Part shown: positions 27,927 through 62,946 of the stretch, in pieces
Position numbering within the stretch: position 1 is the stretch's first letter
How the letters are laid out: each line of letters starts with the position of its first letter
From: Nitrospinales bacterium
Lineage (GTDB): Bacteria > Nitrospinota > Nitrospinia > Nitrospinales > VA-1
DNA length: 64,000 nt
Assembly (NCBI GenBank): GCA_965262115.1
Contig: OZ253496.1
Coordinates: 160,001 to 224,000, forward strand
Reading direction: 5' to 3'
Translations under genes and position numbers: made by a program
The notes under the pieces: model-generated
What the model was told of the DNA's origin: nothing
Databases searched by the model: none
The model's input: only the letters and a program-made list of their open reading frames with translations

Positions 27927-28205
27927 ATGTCTGTCGAAGTAACTATTGATACCACTCCCAATGAGCATGCTTTAAAGTTCAACCTCAACAAAAAAATCCT
28001 TGATTCTGGTTATAAGACTTTTAACAGTCCGGAAGATGCAAAAGATTTTCCGGTGGCCTTGAAAATTTTTGAAAACGAAGGTGTGGCGAGCGTGTTTGTA
28101 ATGGCAGATGGGGAAACGACGTTCATCACCGTCTCAAAAAAACCGGAAGCGAATTGGGATGGCTTGAAAGATAAAATCGTGGAGGATATTAAAGCGGTGC
28201 TCTGA
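27927..28205 (+). CDS. NifU/Nfu N-terminal scaffold domain protein
   Basis: TPNEHALKF, GVASVF, FITVSK and W motifs; AAGGAGG RBS. Confidence 0.85.
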   Translation: MSVEVTIDTTPNEHALKFNLNKKILDSGYKTFNSPEDAKDFPVALKIFENEGVASVFVMADGETTFITVSKKPEANWDGLKDKIVEDIKAVL

Positions 28206-28981
28206 CGTGAGACTCTTTTTTTGTGCCTTTAATTTTAAAATTTATAAACCAAGTCCGCGCCAAAATGAGTTGATGTTCAGAACCTAAGTTTTCAGCCAAC
28301 GGACTCCGGTCGACATCTGAAACTAATACTTTGTACCCAGCAACCCCTTTCAAACTCCAATGTCGGTCAATCTTGCGAGAAAGAATTGATTTCAATGCCA
28401 AATCCTTCAAACCCCCTTCGGCGTTAAAGACTGCAATGCCTGATTGGGTAGATTGGGTCGAAGTGATGCCAAAGTAGGTTTGCATGTAGTTGTCATCTGC
28501 GAAGGTCATGGTCCCTTAACGTTCCAATCCACATCTGTATGGCGCCCAAAGGAATAGCCGAGTCCAATAATAAATAAAAATCCATCATGATTGCCGGAAA
28601 TATCATTCTGGAACTGGAATGAAAGTGAGTAATCATCTAAATTCAGCTTGGCGAAAATTCGGCCATCAATATCGCCAAGTCCATTTAGTTTTACGGAGTC
28701 ATCTTCTTTCCGGCTCTCGTAATAGCCTAAAGATCCCCCAAACTCCAGATCTCTGTTTTTCATAAGATAGACGCCTAAACCTACTCTACATTCACAAAAA
28801 CCGATTTTCCTATGGAAATGTTGACCAGAGGCAAGAGGTCGAATTCATAATCATGGGCACCTTCAAAAGTTGGTCGGTTTATTGCAATGCCTCCCAACGA
28901 AGCCGAAAAGTCGACTGCTCTCACGATCTCCGGAGAAAAGAAGAAAATTGTTAATAGCAATGCTAATAAGGTTTGCTTCAT
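28189..28981 (-). pseudogene. MipA/OmpV-family outer membrane protein, fragmented
   Basis: Three consecutive fragments: signal + PTFEGA..Y, LNGLGDID, and ADDNYMQTYFGI...SPL. Confidence 0.75.
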
Positions 28982-29646: not shown

Positions 29647-29728
29647 AGCTCCCCGCCCACTAGCCTCGGGGGCAGTAGCCGTGATATTCTTCCTCAACAT
29701 TCCTGCCCCGAAGCAACTGTGTTAAATG

Positions 29729-30679
29729 TCAAGTGCTGGCAATGAGATTTTCATTCCAGAGTGTTTTTGTTTTGATCATGGTATTGATGATCGTTAATAA
29801 CTTTCTCATGCATGCGGTAATGGCAACTTTAAAGGGTTTGCCCTTTTCGATGAGGCGTGTGTAAAAGGTACGAATCACGGGATTATGCTGCATGGCAGTG
29901 ACGGCGGCCATGTATAAAGCGGCACGCACATTGGCGCGGCCGCCCCAGATACACCGGCGGCCCCGGAACTTTCCGCTGTCCCGATTGAGGGGAGCGAGAC
30001 CGATAAGGGCGGCGATTTGCTTCTGATTAAGAACTCCAAGTTCCGGAACCCCGGCCAAGAGGTTGACAGCCAGAACGGGACCGGCACCGGGAACACTTTG
30101 TATAATCTGGTCGTGCTCACGCCAGGCAGAACTGTTTTTGATGGTTCTGGAAAGGTCGCCATCGATTTTTCGCAAGCGTTTTTTAAGAGATTCGATATGC
30201 TCCTTAATGTCTTTACATATCCATTTTGGAGCTTGTTTTAGACGGGTTTTTTCTTTGGTCAGCATCTCGATCAACTGGCGACGGCGTGTCACTAGAGCTG
30301 AGAGTTCAAGAGATTCTTCGTCTTTGATTTTCCTGACCTCAGGACGTATGGCCTTGGCAAAATGGGCCAGCACAAGAGAATCAATGACATCGGTTTTTGC
30401 CAGTTTCCCGGTGGCTTTGGCAAAATCACGAACTTGCCGTGGGTTGACCACGGCTACTGGCAGTCGACCCGCAACCAGGGCCGAAGCCAACGGGATCTCT
30501 AAGCCGCCTGTGGCTTCCAAAACGATCAATGGAGGATTTAAGGCGGATAAACTCTCGACCAAACCAGCAATCCCTTCTTCATTGTTAGCGGTTTGCCAGG
30601 TTTCTTGAGTCATGCTGTCAGCAACATCCAGATGGAGTTTAGAAATATCGATGCCAATAAAATGGGGTTTCTGATTCAT
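29729..30679 (-). CDS. IS110 recombinase/transposase (DEDD RuvC + Tnp domain)
   Basis: GIDISK, EATGG, KTDVIDS, DSG and ACMRKLL motifs. Confidence 0.96.
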   Translation of the reverse strand: MNQKPHFIGIDISKLHLDVADSMTQETWQTANNEEGIAGLVESLSALNPPLIVLEATGGLEIPLASALVAGRLPVAVVNPRQVRDFAKATGKLAKTDVIDSLVLAHFAKAIRPEVRKIKDEESLELSALVTRRRQLIEMLTKEKTRLKQAPKWICKDIKEHIESLKKRLRKIDGDLSRTIKNSSAWREHDQIIQSVPGAGPVLAVNLLAGVPELGVLNQKQIAALIGLAPLNRDSGKFRGRRCIWGGRANVRAALYMAAVTAMQHNPVIRTFYTRLIEKGKPFKVAITACMRKLLTIINTMIKTKTLWNENLIAST

Positions 30680-30687
30680 AATTTGGT

Positions 30688-30895
30688 CTCCCAGCCTTGC
30701 CGATGCGGGCTCAGTGGCCCAGGCAACTGTTCGGGTTAATCAAAATAGGACACAACGATCTGCGCTTCGGGACGGGCTTAAAAGCCCAAGGGGTAAACGA
30801 TCTATTGTGCCCTGAATCAAATCCTGGGAGCTTGTGGAAAACACAAAACCGGCTTCCCACAGGGCTCACAGGTACAACTACTACAAATTCCCCTT
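30688..30895 (-). ncRNA. IS110 bridge RNA (predicted; ends approximate)
   Basis: 5' stem, target loop with guides at 30788-30797 and 30765-30771, donor loop with guides at 30721-30730 and 30695-30700. Confidence 0.8.
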
Positions 30896-31055
30896 ATGAA
30901 CAACATACAAGGGGTAAAGATCTGTCTCGGCTGAAAAAGACATGGCTCATTACTAGCGTAGGTTCTCCGCTTGATTATTCTTTCCAAACCCTGATCCTTT
31001 TGATAATTTGAATTCCACGATCAATATTTTTAATAACTTTTAACCTCCAAATAAA

Positions 31056-62597: not shown

Positions 62598-62799
62598 GAG
62601 TGTTTCCGATGTTGTGACCGGAACTCATCTTAGTTGAGCAAGTTTATGAAGTTGTGCGTGCGAGAATTTTAAAAAGCAGGTGTATTAATTGTGGTAACTT
62701 TGATATTTCAGGAAATAATTAGATTCCTATAACATACCAAATTTCTTGAGGATTAAGGGTTTATCGCCCGTCTACCCCTTCGGAGCACGAAAGTTGTGA

Positions 62800-62946
62800 A
62801 TGATGTCTAATAAAAACGGGAATGTTAAATGGCCTCATTTCATAACGACCATTATCGGCTTGATACTAATTATAATCACCTACAGCGTATCAAAATCGGA
62901 GTTTTCCCAGTTTGAAAAACGACTTGATGAAAACATGGCCCGATAA
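62800..62946 (+). CDS. 48-aa single-TM peptide
   Basis: MMSNKNGNVKWPHFITTIIGLILIIITYSVSKSEFSQFEKRLDENMAR. Confidence 0.35.
   Translation: MMSNKNGNVKWPHFITTIIGLILIIITYSVSKSEFSQFEKRLDENMAR

Follow-up and report, generated by a model that had tools for sequence, protein, structure and literature searches.

A multicopy IS110-group insertion sequence from a Nitrospinales bacterium that probably relies on an IS621-type bridge RNA to enter a hairpin repeat

Introduction

IS621 of Escherichia coli (PMC11208160, PMC11208158; PDB 8WT6) is described as encoding a DEDD plus serine recombinase and, in its left end, an RNA with a 5′ stem-loop and two loops; it uses a CT core and REP elements serve as its landing sites. 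The RNA is reported to be required in IS621 (PMC11208160) and in ISEc21 (PMC11187229), while the release of IS621 is debated (cut-out versus single-strand copy-out). Durrant et al. (PMC11208160) built the guide-target pairing from 5,511 natural target-RNA pairs, noted left guides of eight or nine bases as well as longer right guides, and engineered a long right guide into IS621 to raise its specificity. IS622, also named ISCro4 (10.1101/2025.05.14.653916; PDB 9T56), shares 88% identity with IS621 and works in human cells. ISPpu10 and ISPpu9 from Pseudomonas putida (10.64898/2026.03.19.712850) are multi-copy IS110 elements found within an intergenic REP repeat. ISEc21 and ISMch6 (PMC11187229) carry an upstream non-coding RNA and land inside IS3-family elements, and natural retargeting through guide changes was already noted in a relative of ISEc21. 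Insertion into repeats and into IS3 elements, the use of long right guides and natural retargeting have thus all been published in these sources.

Here, we analyzed an IS110 element found in a 64-kb stretch of a Nitrospinales genome (the window, to whose numbering all coordinates refer unless a genome contig is named). Our analysis points, with a probability of about 0.92, to an IS110-group insertion sequence that is intact and has spread recently. Its left end likely codes for a bridge RNA of the IS621 type, which would direct the recombinase to NNTACCC-CT-TCGGG at the hairpin end of a repeat of approximately 41 bp present in about 310 copies. Since the mechanism is already known, this element adds an orthologue and not a principle. 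It is a well-documented orthologue (15 intact copies, target and donor read from dozens of junctions, native long right guide) and hence a ready candidate for orthologue screens. The literature search found no paper dealing with it: the query combining "Nitrospina" and "IS110" returned an unrelated paper only, and the supplements of PMC11208160, where guides and targets from many orthologues are binned, may list the clade.

As described for IS621, the element combines a DEDD plus serine recombinase with a predicted left-end RNA (5′ stem-loop and two loops), a CT core, a right donor half TGTAT, a split right donor guide, handshake bases, a junction promoter (predicted here) and a repeat as target. 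It differs from IS621 by its target (ATCAGGCCTAC in IS621, PMC11208160), by its native right target guide (full match over 7 nt versus 4 nt), by the spacing that separates the core from the conserved G of the target loop (8 versus 9 in the numbering of PMC11208158, position 1 being not read here) and by donor positions 6-7 (TG versus AT). ISCro4 is its best match among solved structures (E 9e-33) and shares its catalytic and wedge positions, but the present element, known from sequence, is distant from both IS621 and IS622. Like ISPpu10 and ISPpu9, it is a multi-copy IS110 integrated within a repeat; as in ISPpu10, the CT core is duplicated and the target sites often form close convergent pairs, whereas the stem-loop of ISPpu10 lies 5′ of the core and was shown to matter while the hairpin found here straddles the core (10.64898/2026.03.19.712850). 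Finally, like ISEc21 and ISMch6, it lands inside IS3-family elements; in ISEc21 the IS3 catalytic codons are targeted directly (PMC11187229), whereas here IS3 is hit through its own copy of the repeat.

Ends, copies and recombinase of the element

The element, its cores and its gene are located as follows:

29712..30911, minus strand: IS110 element including both CT cores
30910..30911, minus strand: left CT core (CT in 25 of 26 left junctions, TT in one)
29712..29713, minus strand: right CT core (CT in 26 of 26 right junctions)
29729..30679, minus strand: gene of the IS110 recombinase, 316 aa

The genome (2.68 Mb in one contig) contains 26 left ends and 26 right ends matching the element, i.e., 23 full-length copies plus fragments, with CT in 51 of the 52 junctions. 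Furthermore, a contig from run X7 joins both flanks of the window locus by one CT core and thus carries the empty orthologous site; this single contig, with 30 letters on its short side, skips 1,199 bp and has one other letter between, a net difference of 1,198 bp. The ends of the element are fixed by these junctions and by this empty site: 1,196 bp separate the two cores, the net insertion is 1,198 bp, and the non-coding left and right ends measure 230 bp and 15 bp. Contigs of runs X8 and X13 also lack the element at this locus. The short core, the lack of long terminal inverted repeats and the single core left in the empty site all agree with membership of the IS110 family.

Among the 23 full-length copies, 15 carry an intact gene, six share a common 10-bp deletion and two belong to an 88% identical subfamily with a broken gene. 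Twenty-one of the 23 are 98-100% identical. The sequencing depth of run X1 (about 301 on the element versus about 12 on its flanks) agrees with this copy number. The element is intact and has recently spread.

The recombinase matches PF01548 and PF02371 (86.9 and 73.5 bits) and the NCBIfam IS110 model NF033542 (226 bits for a cut-off of 140). Its best solved-structure matches are ISCro4 and IS621 and its closest named protein matches are Nitrospinaceae records. In the alignment with IS621 (8WT6, E 5.8e-30 over residues 2-304, about 30% identity by hand count), D11, E55, D97, D100 and S235 face the catalytic D11, E60, D102, D105 and S241 of IS621; Y256, M257 and V260 occupy its wedge positions, and S235 is followed by G236.

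A first-pass annotation, made from the letters of the window alone, had described an intact recombinase and an empty site with one CT between TTTACCC and TCGGG. The domain and family scores and the five aligned catalytic residues bear out the former, the 26 + 26 junctions and the empty site of run X7 the latter, and each of its minus-strand motifs, including the CT cores (30911-30910 and 29713-29712), lies where it was placed.

Two observations concern the surroundings of the element. In run X7, 136 other letters replace 50 of window positions 30970-31021, and a second repeat, matched many times in the genome, lies around 30934-30970. Elsewhere in the window (28189-28763, minus strand), two ORFs, one of 85 aa and one of 106 aa, seemingly represent the parts of a split MipA-family gene.

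Predicted bridge RNA

The non-coding left end contains the following features:

30822..30872, minus strand: 5′ stem-loop of the predicted bridge RNA (weaker of two alleles, -25 versus -36 kcal/mol)
30748..30812, minus strand: target-binding module (closing stem, left guide, inner hairpin, right guide, handshake bases), supported by covariation and RNAalifold
30789..30797, minus strand: left target guide TTTACCCCT, its first base being likely a linker
30765..30771, minus strand: right target guide CCCGAAG, a full 7-nt match to CT-TCGGG
30763..30764, minus strand: handshake bases CG of the target loop, the first one pairing with donor G7 and not with target C7
30689..30734, minus strand: donor-binding module (CCC/GGG stem, guides, hairpin, handshake GC), read from covariation, RNAalifold and the IS621 numbering

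In the target-binding module, the closing stem is formed by GGGCACAA (30812-30805) and TTGTGTCC (30755-30748), and the loop carries the left-target match TTTACCCCTT (30797-30788) and the inner hairpin GGGCTT/AAGCCC (30787-30774), all on the minus strand. The donor-binding module has the layout numbered for IS621 in PMC11208158, with a left donor guide ACAGTTGC at 30730-30723 and handshake bases GC at 30695-30694. Its right donor guide, ATCGGCAAG (30704-30696), is split: it begins with AT, resumes after two looped-out bases with a G that faces T12, and ends in CAAG, a scheme described for IS621 (PMC11208158). GCAAG (30700-30696), which had been proposed as the whole right donor guide, is correctly located but is only a part of it.

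When the IS621-type structure is drawn on 18 aligned sequences, 93% of the cells are paired (34-45% for slid controls) and 17 of 27 pairs show two-sided changes. The closing helix of the target module is 97% paired, with two-sided changes at nine of 13 pairs. RNAalifold, used without guidance, returns the same target and donor modules, so that the two-loop IS621-type architecture of the first-pass annotation is borne out at the level of the alignment. An invariant A and an invariant G, five bases apart, precede each left guide in these 18 sequences with the spacing of the flipped A and syn G of IS621 (PMC11208158). The long non-coding end located upstream of the gene, and the left (bottom-strand) guide lying 5′ of the right guide, place the element in the IS110 group and not in IS1111. 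The lone sequence of this left end folds weakly, without reaching significance: z is -1.64, 12 of 200 shuffles are equally good and the minimum-energy fold is devoid of the donor loop. The bridge-type fold of the RNA core reaches -26 kcal/mol versus -46 for the minimum-energy fold and, lying about 19 kcal/mol above the minimum, would have to be held by protein binding. An Rfam scan of the 64-kb window detected two tRNAs only. Run X17, guessed to be RNA, gave three small contigs that all lie inside the gene and have no weight either way.

In one group of related elements (L019, L024, L046 and L008), only 23-26 bp precede the target module, versus about 108 bp here, and the 5′ stem-loop is missing.

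Donor junction and predicted promoter

The ends of the element provide the two halves of the donor and of a putative promoter:

30905..30909, minus strand: right donor half TGTAT (start of the left end), read from the junctions
29714..29720, minus strand: left donor half ACAGTTG (terminus of the right end)
29727..29732, minus strand: -35 box TTGACA, which holds the stop codon of the recombinase gene; predicted half of the junction promoter
30902..30907, minus strand: -10 box TATGTT; other predicted half of the junction promoter

Joining the ends by script gives TTGACA-17 bp-TATGTT, exactly the box arrangement that had been expected from circularization. The 17-bp spacing is present in all 34 loci that could be parsed in related elements, the parser having demanded TTGAC and TGTAT and allowed other spacings. 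No consensus sigma-70 promoter was found on the minus strand of the integrated form. The contigs of eight runs list no end-to-end joint, but contigs drop rare forms and cannot show absence. A 3-bp inverted repeat (AAC/GTT) flanks the joined donor; it is perfect in 14 of 19 guide groups, with three sequence forms, and a short inverted repeat beside the donor has been noted for the IS110 group.

By analogy with IS621, the recombinase would release a circle joined at ACAGTTG-CT-TGTAT, whose junction would form the TTGACA-17-TATGTT promoter and drive the bridge RNA. In this scheme, the donor loop would pair with this junction, and the two strands of the repeat would both be bound by the target loop; a RuvC-plus-serine tetramer would cut beside the CT core and the handshake bases would favour insertion. 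The element agrees with IS621 in all the sequence-level tests that we ran, and the expression of its RNA is predicted from what is known of IS621.

Target repeat

The target and its genomic context correspond to the following features:

30912..30918, minus strand: left target half TTTACCC, of which only TACCC (positions 3-7) is kept across copies
29672..29711, minus strand: right target half TCGGG and remainder of the interrupted hairpin repeat, delimited from the junctions of the copies
62771..62820, plus strand: unoccupied copy of the repeat outside the element, with one mismatch at position 14

All 23 full-length copies sit in an approximately 41-bp hairpin repeat, about 310 copies of which are present in this genome (TACCCCTNCGGGGCAYGA has 311 matches with at most two mismatches versus one in a shuffled genome). 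Insertion of other copies at unrelated sites, which the first-pass annotation had named as the observation that would overturn its reading, was looked for and not found among these 23. The copies of the repeat are often arranged in close convergent pairs (37 such pairs) or spaced by 39-41 bp. In the window, an unoccupied copy of the hairpin repeat lies at 62773-62815. Within the genus, 20 of 22 other genomes contain the pattern; outside it, two of 18 genomes have a single match each. The target 12-mer is itself a hairpin, CCCC-TNC-GGGG, with a variable loop base (a GNA triloop on the other strand). We searched for a RAYT / Y1 HUH transposase that could account for this repeat and found no PF01797 match in the genome, which is 94% complete; therefore, we call the repeat REP-like only. 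The recombinase itself was considered as the mover of the repeat and rejected, because the ends of the repeat within the IS3 element described below have no CT core and because the IS110 element lands inside the repeat. The repeat is an abundant landing site, as REP elements are for IS621, and the element shows what exploits this lineage-specific repeat.

In 18 distinct left flanks, T is found at target positions 1 and 2 in eight and nine cases only, while the TACCC of positions 3-7 is kept in 14 to 18. Positions 1-2 are thus barely read and the effective target spans about 12 bp, best written NNTACCC-CT-TCGGG. Accordingly, the 14-bp target TTTACCC-CT-TCGGG initially proposed stands for TACCC-CT-TCGGG and not for its first two positions. 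The near-match TCTACCCCTTCGGA at 62771-62784, which had been singled out as an unoccupied target, is indeed present and empty. However, the genome holds 28 perfect empty 12-mers and 150 with one mismatch, and the site at 62771, being a copy of the 41-bp repeat and merely one of these 150, carries no special weight.

Matching of guides and sites in related elements

Guides and sites were compared across related elements. After removal of 16 loci (own-genome repeats, fragments or duplicates), 34 of 90 loci were parsed with both ends and both loops, yielding 19 distinct guide pairs; this version supersedes a stricter parser (seven of 82 loci). Since 56 of the 90 loci, including truncated contigs and divergent scaffolds, failed the motif parser, the parsed set leans towards canonical elements, and related elements within the 19 groups are not fully independent. 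For L045, the parser chose a poorly matching end out of two candidates for the left end, and this locus was still counted. A metagenome pattern scan retrieved 12 loci: one full orthologue (L117), three fragments and eight unrelated loci. Some of the retrieved loci (L108, L110 and L116) show long dispersed direct or inverted repeats around 280-300 bp apart, are unrelated to IS110 and matched the pattern by chance.

Over the 19 guide pairs, the left guide matches its site at a mean of 5.11 of seven positions (2.55 after permutation) and the right guide at 4.79 of five (1.76 after permutation); none of 20,000 permutations reaches either value. The match exceeds what permutation yields and, together with the repeat shared by all the copies, upholds the earlier proposal that the element encodes its own target. 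Position by position, agreement with the left guide is seen in four groups at target position 1, in nine at position 2 and in 15-18 at positions 3-7; for the right guide, 17-19 groups agree at positions 10-14. As the conserved G lies 8 bases before the core here versus 9 in IS621, the first base of the left target guide is likely a linker. A reading of target position 10 by the base that follows the left guide was rejected (match in five of 19 groups). Since the sequence of the target repeat is matched in the element's own non-coding end, guidance by an RNA is likely.

The left donor corresponds to the left donor guide in all 19 groups, with four sequence forms, a match partly built in because the parser searched the right end using the guide with one mismatch allowed. 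In the target loop, the first handshake base can be paired with donor position 7 in 19 of 19 groups, against a single group for target position 7. In the donor loop, the first handshake base shows the opposite preference, with pairing to target position 7 in 13 of 16 groups and to donor position 7 in 0 of 16. Pairing of handshake bases with the non-cognate DNA at position 7 is the pattern described as favouring strand exchange (PMC11208158). The 19 of 19 reflects conservation and not covariation, because donor position 7 is G in all groups.

Base following the core

Target position 10, which follows the core, is the variable loop base of the repeat; in 139 empty sites, it is A in 42, G in 39, C in 30 and T in 28. 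By contrast with the 28% of T in available sites, all main-family right junctions with a clean reading have T at this position (23 of 23, and 16 of 16 distinct flanks; binomial p 1.4e-9), the count leaving out one fragment with a one-base gap and the two sibling copies of the 88% identical subfamily. These two siblings have the guide CCCGCAG instead of CCCGAAG and are located at CT-GCGGG, so that they offer a natural test of single-base discrimination beside the core by a one-base change of both guide and site; they have a common right flank of 227 bp and may represent one event. The empty site of run X7 has G at position 10. Among orthologues, the guide of L117 has a U facing T; G016, whose guide has G, shows T, T, T, C and G across five right ends, and G013, whose guide also has G, shows T. 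Position-10 matching is therefore loose in orthologues.

We tentatively propose, as a possibility that we do not favour, a natural high-specificity variant of the bridge system, in which a short left guide and a full 7-nt right guide read 12 bp and discriminate copies of the repeat by the base after the core. Siblings would split one repeat family by one-letter guide changes (A-guide with T sites, C-guide with G sites), and further spread would take place inside the repeat-carrying IS3 element.

Alternative explanations, IS3 nesting and rearrangements

A 1,290-bp IS3-family element is present in 17 copies in this genome (e.g., G000:C1, 1667310-1668599, minus strand); in the copy that we read, a stop interrupts the second frame close to its end. 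Between its two reading frames, this IS3 element contains a copy of the 41-bp repeat, without target duplication, and gets hit by the IS110 element because of this copy. Ten of the 17 IS3 copies have an IS110 left end, all at one site. The frameshifted IS110 allele has an IS3 flank in seven of seven copies versus four of 15 for the intact allele (Fisher p 0.004; counts entered by hand). In addition, no IS3 copy has matching target duplications at its flanks, and left and right flanks are mixed and shared between IS110 copies. The confinement of the frameshifted allele to IS3 and the mixed flanks indicate that some copies likely spread by co-transport, conversion or rearrangement. Taken further, these data could mean that the element is a real IS110 most copies of which arose by IS3 carriage, gene conversion and inter-copy rearrangement, its single-base specificity being partly inherited. 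This is conceivable, albeit rather unlikely: 11 of the 15 intact copies lie outside IS3 at different copies of the repeat, the window site is empty in run X7, and guides covary with sites across unrelated genomes. Moreover, such carriage would cut the number of independent events and leave the mechanism as it is. Among IS3 sites whose right target is mutated, three of three are empty, versus four of 14 matched sites (p 0.051); we excluded this result from the support since these sites are not independent.

RNA-guided insertion of an IS110 could also involve the structure of the DNA as a second check, either the CCCC-TNC-GGGG hairpin or the downstream GCAYGA part of the repeat. The hairpin formed by the target 12-mer, with its variable loop base, the right flanks of the main family, which go on as GGCA or GGCC in this genome, and the reported use by ISPpu10 of a stem-loop located 5′ in its target (10.64898/2026.03.19.712850) would fit such a check. 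Nevertheless, 134 of the 139 empty TACCCCTNCGGG sites are followed by GCA anyway, so that context and sequence are inseparable in this genome; in G016, three of five right flanks do not go on as the repeat, and relatives whose targets form no hairpin share the same scaffold. We consider this second check improbable. Lastly, the protein alone might pick the site, the guide-like matches having arisen by chance or being left over from local duplication. The non-significant fold of the lone sequence would speak for this view, which is hardly credible given that guides change with targets across 19 guide groups, that stems covary in 18 sequences and that the RNA is reported to be required in IS621 (PMC11208160) and ISEc21 (PMC11187229). 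The reading that we retain is thus that of an IS110-group element probably guided by its bridge RNA into the hairpin end of the repeat.

The element also shows why the genome is heavily shuffled around its copies. A common right flank is found in the copy pairs 1419192/2115683 (380 bp), 1835639/1932250 (227 bp) and 128261/132045 (270 bp) of G000:C1, which suggests duplication or co-movement of adjacent DNA. At G000:C1:2144619-2144782 (plus strand), an extra copy of the initial 163 bp of the left end is present, and the second left end is attached at a CT located just behind the stem of the target loop; a 194-bp contig of run X6 carries the same junction. This duplication could result from self-insertion at a non-matching CT followed by collapse, or from slippage on a 3-base overlap. 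At G000:C1:2519312-2519436, two partial left ends lie head to head through the 5′ stem-loop and adjoin an IS3 fragment, a fold-back rearrangement.
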